From an uncultured virus (IMG/VR IMGVR_UViG_3300027970_000021) (lineage: Duplodnaviria; Heunggongvirae; Uroviricota; Caudoviricetes): a stretch of 20,000 bases of DNA. Where the stretch lies: positions 50,061 to 70,060 of IMG/VR virus record IMGVR_UViG_3300027970_000021; one strand, written 5' to 3'. Within the stretch, counting starts at the first letter, position 1. The number at the start of each line of letters is the position of its first letter. The notes below the pieces were generated by a model. It saw only the letters and a list, made by a program, of their open reading frames with translations. It was not told the DNA's origin and did not search any database. Positions 6,350 through 15,145 of the stretch are shown here, piece by piece. The position numbers were made by a program, and so were the translations under genes.

Positions 6350-7093
6350 CTATCCCCCGCAGACAGCCATTCTAAACGGATTTTTCGGATCGCGGTAGTA
6401 GCCTTTGACCCAGTTTTCTCGTGGCCCGCGGTTTGTTTCATGCACTTTTATGCAGCCATCAATCCACGCTTTCCCCCACCAGGGGAGCTTCACTTTCCGT
6501 AGGAATTTGATGCGGAGATCAGCCAGCCCCCAGTTTTTTGAGAGCCGCAGCCCTAGCCCCAGCCAGAGAAGCGAGATCGGATCGGGCTCCTCACCTGCTG
6601 CCAGCTCAAGGATTGCCCAGTCACCAGGCTGAAGCATCTCAGTCCACGACCAACGTCCGGGATCGCGGGGGTTGTACTGAAACCAGTGCTTGCGCCCATA
6701 CTCGAGAATCGCCCAGGCATGCCCTGAATTGTAGTGGTGCGAGAGGATTGCAAGCGACACCACGTTGTCGTGCGACTGCCCGATGTCAAGCGGCACGAGG
6801 TCGCCTTCTGCATTCTCAAATCTGAGCTCGTGCCCAGGCCACCGCCCGTGGAGCCCCGGCTCAATCTCAGTCAGCTCCATGTGGCGCTTAAAAGCCAGGA
6901 ACCCTTCCACTGATCTCGCCTCCGGGTCAAGCTCAAGGAGCCCCTGCGCCAGCGCGTAGCTCGCGTTCTCGTTGGTTGAGCGCACAGGATATTTCGGACT
7001 CAACGGGGGAGCTAGGTTGCCCGGCTCATCTTCAAACAAACCCCCGCCATCGGGAGCAATGTAGCGCTCGACGAAGGCGGAGAGGTGGTCCAT
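6350..7093 (-). CDS. Hypothetical protein (247 aa, Trp-rich)
   Basis: Long ORF coupled by TAATG to the tail fiber stop; no family recognised. Confidence 0.7.
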   Translation of the reverse strand: MDHLSAFVERYIAPDGGGLFEDEPGNLAPPLSPKYPVRSTNENASYALAQGLLELDPEARSVEGFLAFKRHMELTEIEPGLHGRWPGHELRFENAEGDLVPLDIGQSHDNVVSLAILSHHYNSGHAWAILEYGRKHWFQYNPRDPGRWSWTEMLQPGDWAILELAAGEEPDPISLLWLGLGLRLSKNWGLADLRIKFLRKVKLPWWGKAWIDGCIKVHETNRGPRENWVKGYYRDPKNPFRMAVCGG

Positions 7094-9942
7094 TAGTTTC
7101 CGACCCTCTCGACGTTGAAATAAGTATTTGCAATAACTCCCGAAATTGTGAGTGTGCTTGCCGAGTTGTTTCCAAGGCCGTATAGGAAGATTTCAACGTA
7201 ATCCCCAGCATTCAACTGAAGCGTCGTGCTTCCATTGAACGCGTTGATTGTCGTTGCGGCAGATGTTCTGTACCCAAACAGACGAGCGGACGCTCCGTTT
7301 TTATATAGGTAAAGCCCGTAATCGGATGCGAGCACGTTCGCGGAGGCAAGTAGGACTGCAGCACTTACGCGATACTTACCTGACACCGGGGCCGTGAACC
7401 GACTATTGCCGGAGCTAAACGATCCAGTTGTATCGAAGACTGCGGAAGAGAAGGCCACCTTAACGAAACTATTGTTCGTTGCTACTCCTGTTTGGTTAGC
7501 CCCTCCAAGTGTTGCATCCATCGCGACTGTCTCACTGGCCGCGATCTGCGATGGGCCGGAGATTCGGGAGATGGAGAAGTAGTTGTCAGCAACACCTCCT
7601 CCGACGTTTAATGCTCCACCTGAGTTTTGGAAGACTTGAATCCCTACCGTGTCCCCTGCGTTAAACAAATATTCTGTTGCACCATTCAAAAACGTACCTG
7701 CAGAAGCCGTAGGGCCGAATATGTATGCCAGTGTCCGGATATTGCTTCCGTTTACACGCAGACGAACCTCACGACCGTTGGTCGAGCTTGCGGCAAAAGC
7801 TACTTGAGTCGTAATCCTATACCAGCCAGGGACTGGAATCGTATAGAGACTTGTACCGGTATTCCAAGCCCCGTGCGTGTCGCTGATTGCGGCGTCGAAA
7901 GCTACCAGTGTTCCGGTACTGTCTGGAATCGACTGAGTGGCTGCGCGGCCTGTAGTCATCGCTACGACGCGAGTGTCCGTCTCAGACGACATCTGCACTT
8001 GAGACGACCATCCGGTGATGGGGACGAGGAAAGATCCGCCAAAAACCGTGTTGTTGGCCCAAGCCGTCCCTAACGTGCCATTGAAATAATTATCTGCCTG
8101 TTGGCTAATGATTGCGACCGTTGTTGGAGAACCTGTGGCTACGAGAATATTGCCTGACCATGGGGTTTTAGATGCGGTAAGCGCCCCCACAACAGAGTTG
8201 TTTACGGCTCTAGTTATGTCCATAGAAAGGCCGCTTGGCAGCGAAATAGAAACTGGTGATCCAGAATTTGTTCCAGAAGTAACTGTAAACATGACTTCAA
8301 GAGAATCACCTACGCGCCGATACTTGGCGATAGATGCAGAAACAGTTCCTAGGCCGACAAATGTAGGAGTGTAGCTCTGCCAATCCGTAACAGGCGTTCC
8401 CTGCGTAATAATTTGAGGCCCGACAACAACATCATCAAATGCTAGTGTGTATGCACTAGTGGACACGCTGCTAACATGAAGAATTAAGCGATAGCTGGTG
8501 CTGTTTGAGGCAGTTTGGAAGGTTCCACGCCATTTACTGCCACCAATGAAATTTTCAATAGAACTTGGTGCTGGCTGAATGAGTGTTGCATTTGTAATAT
8601 CATAAATCCAAACAGTCATGTCGCTTGTAGCAAAGGTTCCGGAGACAACTTCGTAATCAAACGAAATGCTTTGTACTTGTGCTTTGTCAATGGAGGCGAT
8701 TGTGAAGTCATAAGAGACGCCTTGTCCTTGACGGTTCGCGGCATCCTTTACAAAATTAAAATCATAAGCTCCGCGAAGAGGCGTTGTGCTCGAAACGTCC
8801 CATGTTACGGTAGCAATGCCTCCAGTCCCATCAACGGGAGCTGTTCCTGGAGCGTTAGTATATGTGGTCCAGCCGGTAGTAAGGCCAGACTCAGCATCGC
8901 CTTCTAGAACATAATTAACTACTTGCGTCTTATCTAAACGATAAGGAGCAGCACTAGAAGCGTCGTTCTTAAAATAAGGGTGTCCATCAGATCCGGGATA
9001 GAAGCTTCCATAACCAGAAGCAACAGTAGGACCAGTGGTAGGAGTTGAAAGTTCTACCATACGAGCGGCGTCTTCTAAACTAATAAGACCCGTTCCGTTA
9101 GCGTTAATGCTAATATTCCCATTAGTATCCGTGCTAGAAATTTCATTACCATCAACGCGAATGTTATCGACATCTAGCTGCGTAATTCCTGACATGGCTC
9201 CGGCATCATTAAGAGCAACGGTACTACTTTGAATAAAGTTACCAGTCGTTCCATCCCAACGAGCAACGCGGTCATCAACAACAACACCAGAAGCCGCAAT
9301 GCCCCCAGAACCACCGACTACGCGCCATCGTGCGGTTGAATCGTCATATTTAAGAATGACAACACCGCCGTTTTTAAGGGAAATAGTCGAACCGTTTCCA
9401 GTAATAATACGGTTGGCGGCAGAAGGATTTGAATCTTCGTTTGGAATACTAATATCACTGCCGCTAGCATTGATGACATAAAGAACTTTATCTCCGGAAG
9501 CTGCAACAATACCGCGCAACGACGTGACAGCGCCGGTAAGGCGAATCGAACCATAAGTAGCGTTTACAAGAGCGTCAACGTTGCCAGTAGAGGCGTCGTT
9601 TTGGTCAGTGACTACAATACCATTACCGTCTAATAGAAGACCGGACGAGATTACCGTTCCAGAACCATTACGAGCAAGGATTTTATTAGCGTCACCAACT
9701 TCAGTTTTAAGTGAAGATAGTGCAAGATCTTGTACGGTGTTGCTGTCTCCGTCAATCGTTTTATTTGTAAGCGTGGCTGCGTGGGCTTCCGTTACAACCG
9801 GACTAGAAGATGTTCCATTATGATAATTAAGCTTTCCATCTCCGCTAGTGACATCCAAATCACCCTGGTCGTCGGCTGTGGAGGCGGATTCTGGACGAAG
9901 GTTTAAACCCTTCCAAATTTTAGTGAAAACATTGGCAGACAT
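7093..9942 (-). CDS. Tail fiber / receptor-binding protein with two tandem C-terminal C1q-like domains (949 aa)
   Basis: Gly/Ser/Thr-rich beta protein with fiber-type motifs TLTNKTID and LDVDNIRVDGNEISSTDTNGNI. C1q-like signatures occur twice: YTIPVPGWY...FNAGDTV and FTAPVSGKY...LNAGDYVEI. Confidence 0.8.
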   Translation of the reverse strand: MSANVFTKIWKGLNLRPESASTADDQGDLDVTSGDGKLNYHNGTSSSPVVTEAHAATLTNKTIDGDSNTVQDLALSSLKTEVGDANKILARNGSGTVISSGLLLDGNGIVVTDQNDASTGNVDALVNATYGSIRLTGAVTSLRGIVAASGDKVLYVINASGSDISIPNEDSNPSAANRIITGNGSTISLKNGGVVILKYDDSTARWRVVGGSGGIAASGVVVDDRVARWDGTTGNFIQSSTVALNDAGAMSGITQLDVDNIRVDGNEISSTDTNGNISINANGTGLISLEDAARMVELSTPTTGPTVASGYGSFYPGSDGHPYFKNDASSAAPYRLDKTQVVNYVLEGDAESGLTTGWTTYTNAPGTAPVDGTGGIATVTWDVSSTTPLRGAYDFNFVKDAANRQGQGVSYDFTIASIDKAQVQSISFDYEVVSGTFATSDMTVWIYDITNATLIQPAPSSIENFIGGSKWRGTFQTASNSTSYRLILHVSSVSTSAYTLAFDDVVVGPQIITQGTPVTDWQSYTPTFVGLGTVSASIAKYRRVGDSLEVMFTVTSGTNSGSPVSISLPSGLSMDITRAVNNSVVGALTASKTPWSGNILVATGSPTTVAIISQQADNYFNGTLGTAWANNTVFGGSFLVPITGWSSQVQMSSETDTRVVAMTTGRAATQSIPDSTGTLVAFDAAISDTHGAWNTGTSLYTIPVPGWYRITTQVAFAASSTNGREVRLRVNGSNIRTLAYIFGPTASAGTFLNGATEYLFNAGDTVGIQVFQNSGGALNVGGGVADNYFSISRISGPSQIAASETVAMDATLGGANQTGVATNNSFVKVAFSSAVFDTTGSFSSGNSRFTAPVSGKYRVSAAVLLASANVLASDYGLYLYKNGASARLFGYRTSAATTINAFNGSTTLQLNAGDYVEIFLYGLGNNSASTLTISGVIANTYFNVERVGN

Positions 9943-10486: not shown

Positions 10487-11872
10487 CTATAACGTTTTTA
10501 CATATTTAGCCTGACCGGCATCGTATATCTTATAAAGTCCTAACTCTTTAGCGTATTCTTTCTCGGAAAGCCCCCTGGCGTCCATATTAGCCTTACAATA
10601 CAGTCTATTAAAGGTCTTTACCCCATCTGTCCATTTCCACCCAAGAGTGGTCCCAGAGCGTTTAAATGCGTTCTTTTCTAAAGACTCTCCGGTGGCGTAG
10701 CGAAGGTCAACAAATGAGACGATTTCTCCACCAAAAGCCTCTAAAAACTTGCAGAGCTTAGAAAAGCCACCAATAATGGACGTATTAAGTTCATTTGAAT
10801 AACGAACAATCTCAGAGCCCGTTTTTGTTTCTTTAAAAGTCATGACAGAAACGAGTTTATTATCATAGAAAAGACCGAGGGCTCTGGAAGCTGGACCTTT
10901 CCCCATCAAGTGAGTCCTTTCTAGGAATTCTGAGGCTTCTTTAAACTCGATTTCTTGAAGAGAGCATTTTCGAGCAAAGATTCTTGTATTCGATTTCTTG
11001 ATATTACCAATCATGCTTTGAATAATAAGGGGGCGTTCTTTAATCTCGTCTTGTCGAAATTGTAGAAGCCGCAATCCAACATTTTCATAATCAATTCGTT
11101 TATTAATGTGATATTTATTATCTTTCTTGTATAAATCTGAATGGTAAATTAATCCATCAACGTCAATATATGTATCCTCTGATAGTTTAAAGTCCGGCTT
11201 GTATTTCAGATCATCGCAAATCTTTTTATTAAAAGATGGAAGATTTTCTATGGTCTTTTGGAATTGCGTTTCTAGGATTGATTTGTACGATTTATGATTC
11301 TCAATCCAATCTTCTGTGGCTTCAATTCCATGCTCTTTTAAATAACGATAAATAAGACAAACTGGGACATCCTTTTCTTTCGAAATTTCGTGCGCATTTT
11401 TGCCCGAAAACACCGGCCTTGCATTAATTTTGCCCGGATTATTAACTCCGTATTTCTTAAGAAGCCCGGCGCGTGCCTTTTCAGTCTGAACATGCTTCCA
11501 ATCAGCCCCATAACGGGACACATTTGTCTTCTTCACTTTATCACGAAGCTCAGGACTCTTTAAAGCGTTCTCAACACCATAACGCGACAGCATAGTGGAA
11601 CGAAACTTCTCTTTGTATTCCGGAAGTTGGGAATTATTAACTACTCCGTATTTAGAAAGCATCGTTTTGGTGCGGTTTTCGTTTTTCCTATCGGGATGCG
11701 TGCTTTGCGCCGCAATTTGAAGATATTTAAGGGAAGTTTCAAACTCACCGTACAAAATGTCAATGAATTTTTGTTTCTTAGTTTTTGGGGCTGAAAGATC
11801 TGTAGAAGAATGGACAATGACATTCTCGGGAAGCCAATCCCTAGGCTTTGATTTATCAATTTTATTTTTCAT
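10487..11872 (-). CDS. Free-standing Hef-like putative homing endonuclease (KYGV repeats, Vsr-like PD-(D/E)XK nuclease, GNAT-like C-terminal domain; 461 aa)
   Basis: Four (K/R)YG(V/A) repeats; YKPDF...IDVDGLIYHS...YHINK...LLQFRQDE nuclease motif; C-terminal RIFARKC...HLMG...VMTF...RY...GGFSKL...SFVDLRY...IYDAG block. AT-rich, with its own promoter. Confidence 0.75.
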   Translation of the reverse strand: MKNKIDKSKPRDWLPENVIVHSSTDLSAPKTKKQKFIDILYGEFETSLKYLQIAAQSTHPDRKNENRTKTMLSKYGVVNNSQLPEYKEKFRSTMLSRYGVENALKSPELRDKVKKTNVSRYGADWKHVQTEKARAGLLKKYGVNNPGKINARPVFSGKNAHEISKEKDVPVCLIYRYLKEHGIEATEDWIENHKSYKSILETQFQKTIENLPSFNKKICDDLKYKPDFKLSEDTYIDVDGLIYHSDLYKKDNKYHINKRIDYENVGLRLLQFRQDEIKERPLIIQSMIGNIKKSNTRIFARKCSLQEIEFKEASEFLERTHLMGKGPASRALGLFYDNKLVSVMTFKETKTGSEIVRYSNELNTSIIGGFSKLCKFLEAFGGEIVSFVDLRYATGESLEKNAFKRSGTTLGWKWTDGVKTFNRLYCKANMDARGLSEKEYAKELGLYKIYDAGQAKYVKTL

Positions 11873-11980: not shown

Positions 11981-13030
11981 TTATACGGGGTTAACAATTG
12001 CGTAGATGAGCGTGCTCTTACCAGGAGCGGAGCAGAAGAGGGCCTGATCGCTCCAAAGGCGAAGCTCAAATCCGGCGCTCTCAGAGAGATGGCGGAAGAA
12101 CTCGTCTTTTTGGCCGGGAAGAGTGAAGGTCATGTCAGAACTACCGACACGGCTCCAGTCATCGAGGCTTAGGAGGTAAGAGTAGCCTTCTTTGACATAG
12201 ATCGAGGGTTCGATTTCAATGTCACCATTCTGTGAATGGAAGAGGATGCTCTTGCTACCGTTCTCAACTTTAGCAGCGCTGTATGACGAATCATACTTAC
12301 GGAGAGCCGCTTGGTCGGAAAGGAGTGAACTCCAGGTACGGGGGTTGACGTAGCAAATTACTTTGCTGTCAAGGCCCTTTTCTACTGCACGAGCAACGGC
12401 GTTGTTAAGCTTGGGGAAGCTAAGAGCGCCAGAGCTAGCAGAGTATTCGTTACCCTTGAAGAGGTTGTAGGTAGCGGTGTCGATGTTGAACAACGTACCA
12501 GTTGAGGTTAGGATCTTATGTACGCCAGGGAATTCGTTACCGTAAGCGCCTTTGTGCCAGATTACGTCGGTGGCAACTACGCCAGCGGCACCAGCAGAGG
12601 TCTTAAGGGTAACTACGCGAGTGTCCATGTTGACGTTCTTAACAGAGAATTCTCCGCGAGAAACGGCACCAGAGGCATCACGAATTTCGATAGGCATGTT
12701 CTCAGCACCGGCCCAGATACCAGGAGCCCACTCGGCAGTGGTGATCGTGATATCAGCAGCAGAGACGCTAGCAACGGTGGCGTAACCAACTTGACCGTAG
12801 AACATTTCGATCTCTAGCTTTTTGGCTAGTGAACGGAGCATGTTCGCTACAAGATACTTGGTGGCGTCCATGAAGGCTTGAGCCGTACCTTGTGAAGCAC
12901 GCGAAGCGGCAGAATAACCAAGGACAGAACGCATGAGGATAGGGTTCCCACGGATCTGAGCGTCCTTGATTACGCCAGCGACGGCGGGGTTAAGGTTGAA
13001 CGCATCTTCGTCAGAAGCGGCGAAAGTAAC
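11981..13030 (-). CDS. Major capsid protein, exon 3 (349 aa; spliced gene = join of 14639-14574, 13670-13533, 13030-11981; 417 aa)
   Basis: Downstream of portal and scaffold, followed by a strong terminator, and capsid-like in size and sequence (LAKKLEIEMFYG, GVHKIL...LFNID). The ATG at 13033 is the last 3 nt of intron 2. Confidence 0.85.
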   Translation of the reverse strand, partial: VTFAASDEDAFNLNPAVAGVIKDAQIRGNPILMRSVLGYSAASRASQGTAQAFMDATKYLVANMLRSLAKKLEIEMFYGQVGYATVASVSAADITITTAEWAPGIWAGAENMPIEIRDASGAVSRGEFSVKNVNMDTRVVTLKTSAGAAGVVATDVIWHKGAYGNEFPGVHKILTSTGTLFNIDTATYNLFKGNEYSASSGALSFPKLNNAVARAVEKGLDSKVICYVNPRTWSSLLSDQAALRKYDSSYSAAKVENGSKSILFHSQNGDIEIEPSIYVKEGYSYLLSLDDWSRVGSSDMTFTLPGQKDEFFRHLSESAGFELRLWSDQALFCSAPGKSTLIYAIVNPV

Positions 13031-13139
13031 CATTTTGTTATCGTAAGGGCTCTTTATCCCCTACTTCTTATAGTTTCCTATAAGTTCAGACTATCTTTTC
13101 AGAAGCCATGAGCTTCTGTCGGTGACTCGTGGGAATATT

Positions 13140-13460
13140 CTATTCCGCTTTCGCGGGTTCAATTCCTAGTCGTTGCGCGTGTGAAGAACTTTTAAGTCCA
13201 ACACTTCCGCTCTGATTGGCATATTCAGATAGATAGAAAAACTTCCACCCTAAGCTACTTTTTCTCCTGCCTGTATTTTTACAGATTTCCTCAACAGTAA
13301 AGTTTTCTTTTCCATAGCTTCGGATAGCATTAGAAATATGACGATTACGTTTTTCTACACAATGAGAATTAAAGCGACGAGAAACTGAGCCAGTTGTTTG
13401 ACCAACATACTCTTTTCCGTTCACATTATTCTTAATTTTGTAGATTATTCCGTATCTCAT
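13140..13460 (-). pseudogene. Intron-encoded GIY-YIG homing endonuclease, internally deleted (106 aa)
   Basis: GIIY...YVGQT...RR...H motif is present, but after FTVEEI the ORF jumps to CKNTGRRKSSLGWKFFY (NUMOD1/HTH-end-like). The helix with the catalytic Glu and the GYN motif are missing. The 3' end overlaps the intron core. Confidence 0.75.
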
Positions 13461-13466
13461 ATATCT

Positions 13467-13495
13467 ATCCTATCACATCTAACTTAGCTTTCCAA
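13467..13495 (-). promoter_or_regulatory. Possible sigma70 promoter for the GIY-YIG ORF inside intron 2
   Basis: TTGGAA (13495-13490), 17-nt spacer ending in TGA, TAGGAT (13472-13467), then 6 nt to the ATG at 13460. The AGGA could alternatively be an SD. Confidence 0.45.
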
Positions 13496-13532
13496 GTTTT
13501 TTCACCAATTTATTAGCACGGCATTAAACTTT

Positions 13533-13670
13533 ACCGTGCTCCATCCCCAAAATAACTGGCTGATGGTACAAATTGCCAGGCATCTTGGATTTCTCCATGA
13601 ATGCCACGCGATTTACTAGCTTTACGCCATCCGGAATAAGTTCTTTAAGCTTATTCGCATAAGTTTCTTT
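13533..13670 (-). CDS. Major capsid protein, exon 2 (46 aa; not in the ORF track)
   Basis: 138 nt between the two introns reading KETYANKLKELIPDGVKLVNRVAFMEKSKMPGNLYHQPVILGMEHG; in frame with exons 1 and 3 at the predicted splice sites. Confidence 0.88.
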
Positions 13671-14573
13671 CGAACTGTTTGCTCCAATTACTTGGAGTGT
13701 CGGACTATATCATCTGGCTTATTGCCAGCCGCGCGCTGTAAAATTCTGAATTGATAAACTTGCTCAATATATCTAAATTTATGTTGCATACTTTTAAGTC
13801 CAAGAACCGTGTCTCGGATTGTATGCCATATCTTTAAGGAGTCTTTTTCCGTAAAGGCTAGGAATGGATAGGTTTTAGATGTCCTTTTATCATTCATAAA
13901 CCTAACTTTGGGCTTTACTCCAAGCTGTGTTTCAAACCATTTGATTAATACATCATAATCTGAAATAGATTCGCTATATGTAAAGATTCTAAACCTTGCA
14001 CTCTTCGTGGTCTTTACTCCATGGATCATTTGGAATCCACTAGTCTCAACATATCCGTCATCCATAAGCCACACTGCTGCGGCAAACTCCGGATGCTTTA
14101 AAAAAGGAAGGATTTTTATAATCTCCTTTTTTCCATTGGGATATGTAAACTTTCTCCATGCTCTGAGACGCTTCCAACAAACTTGGAATTGTACAGATTT
14201 CCCTTTATGTCCTTGTCTAACTTTAACGTTTCTACCAGTTATGGATGAAACGATTTGAGCTTTCCAGGCAACATAATCGGCTTGGGAAGTTCCGTGGTCA
14301 ATCGAAAGACCGCCATAGACTGATCCCGCATTTTTTATATAGTGCAGACATCCGTCTCCCAAAACCATGGATAGGATAAGACTTCTTTTATCTTTATTAA
14401 GCATTTTATTCTCCAACTCGCTATGCGATCAGGATTATTCTAAATTTTTAGTCTCTGGACCTTGCTCTTCTAGAGAGCCTTGGCTGCTGATTGTCCCGTA
14501 GGATTTCCAGCAATTCACGCAGTTTTACAAGCTTTCGCTTGTCGGGGGTTTACCCGACCTCTTCAAATTAACT
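13671..14573 (-). mobile_element. Group I self-splicing intron 1 in the major capsid gene (903 nt, IA-like)
   Basis: P1: exon CCTCTTT pairs with GAAGAGG, with U-G at the splice site. P3 CTGCGTG/CGCGCGG; P4/P5 AATTGCTGGAAA-TCCTACGGGA-CAATCAGCAGCC; P6a GCTCT/AGAGC; P7 GACTA/TAGTC; P8 CTGGC/GCCAG; P9 CTCCAA-GTAA-TTGGAG; terminal G at 13671. Removal restores NGLF|KETY. Confidence 0.93.
13688..14404 (-). CDS. Intron-encoded double-motif LAGLIDADG homing endonuclease (238 aa)
   Basis: Motifs LILSMVLGDG and AAAVWLMDDG, plus HGTSQADYVAWK (LAGLIDADG_2, I-SceI-like pattern). A GGAG SD precedes the ATG at 14404. The stop lies in the P9 loop of the intron. Confidence 0.88.
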   Translation of the reverse strand: MLNKDKRSLILSMVLGDGCLHYIKNAGSVYGGLSIDHGTSQADYVAWKAQIVSSITGRNVKVRQGHKGKSVQFQVCWKRLRAWRKFTYPNGKKEIIKILPFLKHPEFAAAVWLMDDGYVETSGFQMIHGVKTTKSARFRIFTYSESISDYDVLIKWFETQLGVKPKVRFMNDKRTSKTYPFLAFTEKDSLKIWHTIRDTVLGLKSMQHKFRYIEQVYQFRILQRAAGNKPDDIVRHSK

Positions 14574-14639
14574 AAAGAGGCCGTTAAGGTTGCCAACCGT
14601 ATTGTTTGGCGTACCAAAAGTATTAACTGAAGTAGACAT
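14574..14639 (-). CDS. Major capsid protein, exon 1 (22 aa; not in the ORF track)
   Basis: AGGAG SD (14654-14650), then ATG 14639, reading MSTSVNTFGTPNNTVGNLNGLF. An in-frame TAA follows one codon into the intron. Confidence 0.88.
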
Positions 14640-14668
14640 TTGTTATTTTCTCCTATTTATTAAGTTTA

Positions 14669-15145
14669 TTAAGCGTCTTCTGCAACAACGTACTCTAGCT
14701 CTAGGCAGAGTTGACGGGTTCCAGAGGTTAGAGCTAGGCCAGAATCGACGTTTAGTACAATCTTATCCAAAGCACCGCCAGCGACAATGCCGCTTGCTGG
14801 AGCTGAGGGAAGAGTGCATGTAACTAGGTCGGCAGAGCTAAGGCACGATACCTTAGCAGAGACAACCTTTTCGACTTGTTCTTGGATGCGGACGAGAACT
14901 GAGAAAATCCCAGTTGCGTCGGCAGCACTTGCTAGCGTAGGAACGGTGTCGTCAGAATTTAGGGCACCTGAGGCGACCGTAATATTGTCGATACCTTCTA
15001 CAGCCAAGAACAGGAGCGAGGGCTCGTCGCTAGTAAGAACTTTAGCGGCGGGGGTAGCACTACCAACGATCTGGAAAGGGATGGATACCTTCTGGACCTT
15101 TAGTTGGCGGCTGCGAACTTGTGAATCTTTTGATTCGTATGCCAT
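14669..15145 (-). CDS. Putative head decoration / minor capsid protein (158 aa)
   Basis: Ala/Ser/Val-rich ORF with an AAGGA SD, located between scaffold and capsid genes. Function inferred from position only. Confidence 0.55.
   Translation of the reverse strand: MAYESKDSQVRSRQLKVQKVSIPFQIVGSATPAAKVLTSDEPSLLFLAVEGIDNITVASGALNSDDTVPTLASAADATGIFSVLVRIQEQVEKVVSAKVSCLSSADLVTCTLPSAPASGIVAGGALDKIVLNVDSGLALTSGTRQLCLELEYVVAEDA

Follow-up and report, generated by a model that had tools for sequence, protein, structure and literature searches.

The window analysed here is a stretch of 20,000 nucleotides (nt) from an uncultured virus (IMG/VR record IMGVR_UViG_3300027970_000021); it forms the final 20 kb of that 70,060-bp record, which is complete according to CheckV. 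All coordinates refer to the minus strand of the window. On this strand lies a major capsid gene that is split between codons 22 and 23 by an insert with the features of a group I intron (intron 1), and within the intron is an open reading frame (ORF) for a homing endonuclease of the LAGLIDADG_2 family. The ORF begins past the 5' strand of the ribozyme helix P7, within the P7.1 stem, and the ribozyme sequence supplies its last 21 codons. After exon 2 the capsid gene has a second intron and then its last exon, which comprises 350 codons (13030..11981) and matches the 'major head protein' family of PHROG.

To define the borders of intron 1, we aligned the exon peptides of the window to 46 loci that carry relatives of the last capsid exon (most at 57–79% identity), and inspected weak cases. 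In 41 of these loci exon 1 runs directly into exon 2, so the 903-nt gap between the exon matches corresponds exactly to 14573..13671, with G13671 as the final intron base. Just two loci have an insert at this site: L031 and L010, the latter identical to the window. The remaining three were unusable, two being truncated (L020 and L037) and one having introns at other sites (L055). No copy of the intron lacking the ORF was found at this site among the 46 capsid loci. The 41 intron-free junctions are candidate natural targets of the nuclease, and the closest of them shares 30 of 36 bases with the exon flanks of the window. The exon ends in TTC in many of these intron-free alleles. In 29 of the 31 intron-bearing relatives for which the junction was available, by contrast, its last base is T (G or C, by alignment, in the other two); a U-G pair at the splice site needs this T. 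In the window, the frame that leaves codon 22 reaches a TAA two codons into non-coding sequence (14570-14568), within the loop of P1.

Among the contigs of four lake-water DNA runs, compared with 12800-14900, none showed the two exons joined without the intron; a single joint of 299 nt, with sides of 20 nt, was present and probably comes from other organisms. Among the sequencing runs listed as containing this stretch there is no RNA run. Against phage GenBank records, megablast and blastn with the region and tblastn with the nuclease gave no relative, only short conserved intron-core pieces, and tblastn with exon 3 gave one capsid relative at 30% identity. An intron identical to intron 1 also lies on a 124,122-base metagenome contig (locus L057), as against the 70,060 bases of the virus record rated complete.

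The intron can be folded into the helices expected of a group I ribozyme (Table 1). The 5' splice site follows U14574, which forms a U-G pair with G14564, and the guide strand of P1 varies together with the exon among relatives. An earlier note, drawn up by a model from the letters of the DNA, had described the ORF as lying past the 5' strand of P7 in a loop closed by an imperfect P7.1 stem. We confirmed this stem: 14448-14437 and 13751-13740 pair at 11 of 12 positions in the window, with one G-U pair and one A/A mismatch. The note had also read the last codons as P3', P8, J8/7, P7' and P9, with the TAA stop inside the GTAA tetraloop of P9, and our coordinates agree. Within P7.1 lies an inner hairpin, formed by UCC 14434-14432 with GGA 14414-14412, G14430 with U14416, and UCGC 14428-14425 with GCGA 14421-14418; downstream of it come AAUAAA and then the ATG of the ORF. 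With P7.1 and this inner hairpin between P7 and P3', the predicted structure is of the subgroup IA type.

Table 1. Predicted features of the capsid gene exons, intron 1 and its nuclease gene, in minus-strand order
Feature	Position	Strand	Basis and remarks
Exon 1, major capsid gene	14574..14639	-	22 codons, ATG at 14639; translation
Intron 1, group I, 903 nt	13671..14573	-	Distance between exon matches; partial RF00028 matches; covariation
P1	14558..14580	-	Exon end 14580-14574 pairs with guide GAAGAGG 14564-14558; U14574-G14564; 87–88% paired
P2 (14557-14553/14546-14542) and P2.1 hairpin with GAAA loop (14540-14529)	14529..14557	-	Read from sequence; alignment register off here
P3 5' strand, CUGCGUG	14516..14522	-	Partner 13735-13729; 98.3% paired, 5/7 pairs changed on both sides
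P4 (14512-14507/14490-14485) and P5 with UACG loop (14503-14494)	14485..14512	-	P4 98.0% and P5 93.8% paired
P6 (14484-14482/14461-14459) and P6a (14478-14464)	14459..14484	-	P6 100% and P6a 95.7% paired
P7 5' strand, GACUA	14449..14453	-	No change in 33 relatives; pairs with 13707-13703 (99.4% paired)
P7.1 5' strand	14437..14448	-	Non-coding partner of codons 218-222; covariation
Inner hairpin of P7.1 (P7.1a-like)	14412..14434	-	Covariation; same hairpin from local fold
LAGLIDADG_2 homing endonuclease gene	13688..14404	-	238 codons + TAA; Pfam, relatives, model, dN/dS
P7.1 3' strand	13740..13751	-	Codons 218-222; covariation
P3', CGCGCGG	13729..13735	-	Codons 224-226; pairs with 14522-14516
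P8 hairpin	13714..13728	-	Codons 226-231; 92.7% paired; 5/5 pairs compensatory
J8/7 (13713-13708) and P7' UAGUC (13707-13703), AUGAUAUAGUC	13703..13713	-	Codons 231-234, read as DDIV; motif across related loci
P9 hairpin, GUAA loop 13691-13688	13682..13697	-	Codons 236-238 and stop in 5' strand and loop; ORF stop TAA 13690-13688 in loop
Exon 2, capsid gene	13533..13670	-	46 codons, then intron 2

Covariation among relatives supports this fold. From an alignment of 46 nuclease sequences (A1) we fetched 51 loci, 32 from metagenomes and 19 viral, and left out 18: 12 duplicates, three cut by contig ends (L076, L084 and L087), and L070, L074 and L088. The 33 non-redundant relatives that remained (alignment A2) all have their intron at the homologous capsid codon. 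Across A2, 87.9% of the cells in the proposed structure pair, compared with 69.8% after shuffling (none of 500 shuffles reached the observed value) and 35–45% when the partner strands were slid. P3, whose strands flank the ORF, is 98.3% paired and has changed on both sides in five of its seven pairs (Table 1). P7.1 shows changes on both sides in 11/11 tested pairs and is 81–94% paired. The eight pairs of the inner hairpin are 94.0% paired, against 70.1% in shuffles, and one of them (columns 298/319) occurs as CG in 20 relatives, UA in eight and AU in five. The P9 columns are misaligned in A2 (41–49% paired) and were checked one sequence at a time instead, which located a P9 hairpin 4–5 nt past P7' in 31 of the 33. 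The motif GATATAGTC is present in 45 of the 51 related loci, in one of these with a single mismatch. The comparative folding proposed in the earlier note supports P1, P3, P4-P6, P7.1, the inner hairpin and P8. Covariation places both P3' and P7' downstream, and so does not bear out the upstream placement that the earlier note had named as a refutation.

The ORF product is a protein of 238 amino acids (aa) with the C-terminus QRAAGNKPDDIVRHSK. The frame as listed by an ORF finder opens at TTG 14416, and the start that aligns in relatives is ATG 14404. Its assignment to LAGLIDADG_2, already made in the earlier note, was borne out by a Pfam profile search (PF03161; 47.2 bits, the cut-off being 25; E 3.1e-12; residues 8-188); the protein also matches PHROG 11023 (E 1.5e-6) and has 213 relatives in a large protein collection. 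D17, G18 and D115, D116, G117 are invariant in 46/46 sequences. An AlphaFold model (mean predicted local distance difference test score, pLDDT, of 92) consists of two alpha-beta-beta-alpha-beta-beta-alpha halves, in which the LGDG motif (D17) follows helix 3-15 and the MDDG motif (D115, D116) lies at the end of helix 105-116. We take D17 and D115/D116 to be catalytic, as in the LAGLIDADG_2 family. The top fold matches of the model are I-SceI (E 2e-9; template-modelling (TM) scores 0.60/0.63), I-WcaI, I-DmoI and I-AniI, and searches of the PDB by sequence and by profile found no match to the nuclease. The ratio of nonsynonymous to synonymous substitution rates (dN/dS), calculated over codons 1-217, is 0.06–0.25 in 13/13 pairs at 72–99.9% nucleotide identity. 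The nuclease is under purifying selection, and we infer that it would cut intron-free alleles site-specifically.

The ORF and the ribozyme core share 64 nt, and the place at which the frame stops differs among the relatives. The stop lies past the P7.1 3' strand in 33/33, in nine classes: J7.1/3 (two relatives), the P8 5' strand (one), the P8 loop (L8; eight), the P8 3' strand (five), J8/7 (five), P7' (three), the P9 5' strand (two), the P9 loop (L9; two) and the 3' tail past P9 (five). These places range over about 75 nt, the first lying 73 nt ahead of the 3' splice site and the last coinciding with it; in two relatives TAG forms the final three bases of the intron. Of the three frames of the invariant sequence GAUGAUAUAGUC, one contains TGA, another contains TAG and the remaining one reads DDIV, which accounts both for three of the stop classes and for the DDIV tails that we also found on unrelated nucleases of other introns, including a GIY-YIG enzyme. 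In the AlphaFold model, residues 221-238 have low confidence, the last two 10-residue blocks averaging pLDDT 63 and 56, and no secondary structure follows residue 222.

This pattern looks like 'core creep', a concept set out with its predictions by Edgell, Chalamcharla and Belfort (PMC3073962, as far as its accessible text goes), and not like a selected dual code, because the stop place varies among relatives and the modelled tail has low confidence. Table 1 of that article, in the part available, lists overlaps of 9–81 nt, including one LAGLIDADG case. Its first prediction, that 3' extensions should vary in length among relatives of one invasion, agrees with what we see here; in the literature we found this prediction discussed only for single cases and fungal mitochondria. 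The C-terminal tail is probably dispensable for the protein. The earlier note had called the ORF overprinted on the core; this holds in the physical sense, and the tail itself appears incidental, given its nine stop places and low-confidence residues 221-238.

How rare is this arrangement? We collected at least 81 copies of the P4/P5 core sequence shared with introns on other viral contigs (hereafter sister introns). Among the matches listed, to which all sister counts below refer, the spacing between P7 and P7' is 56–132 nt in 54, 168–199 nt in three and 425–946 nt in 15, the spacing in nine further copies being unresolved. In many of the short-spaced sisters, judged by eye, GACUA is followed by an outer stem around an inner hairpin and then by P3', which suggests that P7.1 was there before the ORF, and that the ORF of the window occupies the 3' side of its internal loop. 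Eight of the 15 long-insert sisters carry LAGLIDADG_2 genes. Seven of these eight (L112, L117, L121, L128, L140, L159 and L163) have the ORF in P7.1, the P3' motif lying downstream by eye, and six of the seven read on through P3'. Five long-insert sisters have the ORF in P8 (LAGLIDADG_1/3, HNH, GIY-YIG and two unnamed), and in three its position is ambiguous, among them L148, which holds the eighth LAGLIDADG_2 gene. None of 78 sister-intron loci encodes the capsid exon.

LAGLIDADG_2 genes within P7.1 are thus common in phage introns of viral metagenomes. The earlier note had considered both family and position less usual, which is right for the well-studied cases covered by reviews: the available text of PMC3984707 (Hausner and colleagues) describes phage intron nucleases as mostly GIY-YIG, HNH, PD-(D/E)xK or EDxHD, and Table 1 of PMC3073962, in the part available, gives a similar view. 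For metagenomes the claim of rarity fails, with 7/15 long-insert sisters of this kind. The portions of the literature that we consulted on P7.1/P7.2 ORFs and on LAGLIDADG genes in phage capsid introns mention no nuclease gene in P7.1, which does not exclude that one has been described.

Taken together, these comparisons of sequence point to a mobile IA group I intron that splits the major capsid gene of a phage from lake water, with a LAGLIDADG_2 gene in P7.1 and a tail produced by core creep, a reading to which we give a probability of roughly 0.8. The ribozyme would restore the capsid mRNA. During mixed infection the endonuclease would cut capsid alleles that lack the intron, at the point where exon 1 meets exon 2, and repair would then copy the intron into the cut allele. 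The frame would stay open until the core offers its first in-frame stop, hence the 21 codons taken from ribozyme sequence. The distribution fits mobility, being patchy (2/46 capsid loci) and at the homologous site in 33/33 relatives.

Several observations weigh against this reading. The Rfam model RF00028 matches the window with 43.1 bits in the 5' part and 21.5 bits in the 3' part, both below its cut-off of 50, and a search of the window at the Rfam gathering threshold gave no match. The low scores are explained by the 717-nt ORF, which splits the match and which the model cannot bridge: six of six ORF-less sister introns tested score 78–95 bits, and one ORF-bearing sister scores 51.8. In the three related loci L070, L074 and L088, a motif scan found neither P7 nor J8/7-P7'. 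Finally, the aligned last intron base is G in 24 of the 33 relatives, and G after a 1-nt shift in two more (L096 and L097), but A in seven (L058, L059, L063, L068, L073, L082 and L101) in which P7 is invariant; alternative registers tried for these seven gave none that keeps the frame with both the U-G pair and a terminal G.

The overlap bears on how the two products could be made from one RNA. A ribosome that reads as far as 13688 would terminate 17 nt short of the 3' splice site and would have to open P7.1, P3, P8, P7 and P9, and an RNA under translation would not be catalytic at that moment. At the other end of the ORF, the putative Shine-Dalgarno (SD) sequence GGAG (14414-14411) has three of its four bases, GGA (14414-14412), engaged with UCC in the inner hairpin, which covaries, so that a folded, splicing-competent RNA would disfavour initiation of the nuclease. 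By analogy with T4 td/I-TevI, it is reasonable to suppose that translation and splicing compete, as the earlier note had suggested. In that system, according to the accessible text of PMC3073962, a hairpin at the ribosome-binding site delays translation, and deregulated translation lowers splicing; the available part of PMC3984707 adds that intron ORFs at times extend into the core and that their expression is then tightly controlled. A tentative extension, which we would not rate as probable, is that the intron acts as a folding-gated switch, in which each pre-mRNA either folds, hiding the SD and giving capsid mRNA, or stays unfolded and serves nuclease synthesis while the ribosome melts the core, with selection across the family keeping the balance. 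If this were so, the 33 relatives would form a natural graded series for the amount of ribosome traffic that a ribozyme core tolerates.

Alternatively, there may be no real competition, the nuclease being made from the excised intron, or too rarely to affect the yield of capsid mRNA, with the pairing of the SD as a by-product. A comparable inner hairpin is found in ORF-less sister introns as well, so its conservation may serve only the ribozyme, the SD simply falling within it. Folded alone, the hairpin is also thermodynamically unremarkable (z -1.32; 21 of 200 shuffles fold equally well). Both points count against gating by the hairpin. Nor did we see a separate sigma-70-like promoter on the minus strand from 14573 to 14404, the part of the intron that precedes the ATG, which is weak evidence either way. 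On the other side, ribosomes in the overlapping td/I-TevI ORF are reported to lower splicing, and the overlap here (64 nt, five core elements) exceeds the 20 nt given for td in the portion of PMC3073962 that covers it. We regard an absence of competition as possible but doubtful.

It is unlikely that the protein acts mainly, or also, as a maturase that binds its own intron near the guanosine pocket flanked by P7.1 and helps it to fold. LAGLIDADG maturases do exist: I-AniI (1p8k) is among the fold matches, and a Thermotoga intron protein is named in the accessible part of PMC3984707. Strong purifying selection and the location of the ORF at the core, not in a far peripheral loop, would also suit such a role. 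Against it, the acidic residues of both motifs are invariant in 46/46 sequences, which fits a retained nuclease, and the presence of the intron in just 2/46 capsid loci fits ongoing homing.

A selected dual code, in which tail residues 223-238 serve DNA binding or regulation and thereby keep the frame open through the core, seems to us improbable. The frame is open through P3' in 31/33 relatives, and Q223 is nearly invariant, as such a code would have it. The conserved residues QR and DDIV, though, coincide with invariant RNA (ACAGCGC and GAUGAUAUAGUC), and DDIV tails are shared with the unrelated nucleases of sister introns noted above. The roughly 75-nt spread of stop places and the low model confidence of the tail likewise argue for core creep.

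We consider it very improbable that the insertion is decaying and no longer splices, leaving a dead copy of the capsid gene, despite the sub-threshold RF00028 score and the truncated GIY-YIG frame in the second intron, since all helices are intact in the window and covary across relatives, the exons remain in frame, the same sequence occurs in contigs of several lake-water DNA runs, and the record is complete according to CheckV with no second capsid gene seen in the window.

The intron is a new, uncatalogued member of a class of selfish element that is already known, and its relatives form a useful comparative series. It offers a clean comparative case in which a selfish nuclease gene and a ribozyme share their bases within a phage gene that is essential and highly expressed, and the 33 natural variants of one invasion, with their nine stop classes, directly bear out a published core-creep prediction. 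The nuclease proteins are compact and diverse I-SceI-like candidates with candidate natural target sites at hand, and P7.1 LAGLIDADG_2 genes matter for the annotation of split capsid genes in viral contigs.

Codons 1 to about 70 of the capsid gene are a hot spot for introns: across the 46 loci, at least seven distinct codons are followed by an insert (after LNGxF, KEA, ELIP, PGE/NLYH, HQP, ILG and EHG), with three successive inserts in L055. One of the capsid introns in that locus contains a distant LAGLIDADG gene (L055:1090-2030) that starts directly after the P7 strand GACUAG and has its TAA inside J8/7. Intron 2 of the window, also of group I, is 502 nt long (13031-13532), with a P1 that includes U13533-G, G13031 as its last base and an in-frame TAA two codons in. 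It carries a GIY-YIG frame of 106 codons (13460..13140) that matches the family in residues 4-61 only and continues through P3-P7 to a TAG just past P7; this resembles a truncated nuclease gene, and the overlap is larger still. Two short intron-core pieces of the window (13031-13068 and 14479-14518) recur in many other lake-water contigs at a depth far above that of the phage and match Clostridioides, Staphylococcus and Vibrio phage records, which points to a very widespread intron class.

Along the minus strand, the capsid gene is preceded by a weak portal match, then a charged protein of 332 aa and another protein of 158 aa. Directly downstream of it is a free-standing homing-endonuclease-like gene of 461 aa (10487-11872; PHROG 3339/559, DUF7487), followed by a 949-aa protein (7093-9942) with BclA C-terminal (BclA_C) and C1q domains, probably a tail fibre, and by a CHAP lysin.

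The closest known system is T4 td/I-TevI, as described in the available text of PMC3073962. There, too, the 3' end of a nuclease ORF supplies bases of core helices in a phage IA group I intron, the ribosome-binding site lies in an RNA hairpin, and translation of the ORF is reported to reduce splicing. I-TevI differs in being a GIY-YIG enzyme encoded in the P6 loop with a 20-nt overlap (P6a, P7), whereas here a LAGLIDADG_2 gene in P7.1 overlaps by 64 nt; in addition, the hairpin that pairs with the SD seems in this case to belong to the ribozyme, and we saw no internal promoter-like site. The intron in the gene for large-subunit ribosomal RNA (LSU rDNA) of Synechococcus lividus, in the accessible parts of PMC3073962 (Table 1) and PMC1995217, shares a LAGLIDADG ORF whose overlap is long (81 nt; P6/P7/P3/P8/P9.0/P9), but lies in a bacterial rRNA gene, encodes a single-motif enzyme and has its ORF listed in P8. 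In mycobacteriophage LittleE an intron likewise splits the major capsid gene and carries a LAGLIDADG-related nuclease, and its splicing has been shown; according to the part of PMC3706429 that was available, the opposite strand carries its nuclease gene and no type was assigned to the intron, and tblastn against phage records revealed no sequence relation to the nuclease family of the window. The protein itself resembles I-SceI and other monomeric two-motif enzymes (PDB 3oor and 1r7m; I-WcaI, 6x1j) in fold (E about 2e-9, TM 0.60–0.63) and in PF03161 membership, at only 16–17% identity and with a mitochondrial rRNA intron there in place of a phage intron. Finally, the type IA introns of Twort and Pf-WMP3, in the available text of PMC1995217 and PMC3428280, have extra pairings (P7.1/P7.2) between P7 and P3' as here; in Pf-WMP3 the ORF runs from P6a across P7, P7.1 and P7.2, whereas that of intron 1 starts inside P7.1 and exits through its 3' strand.

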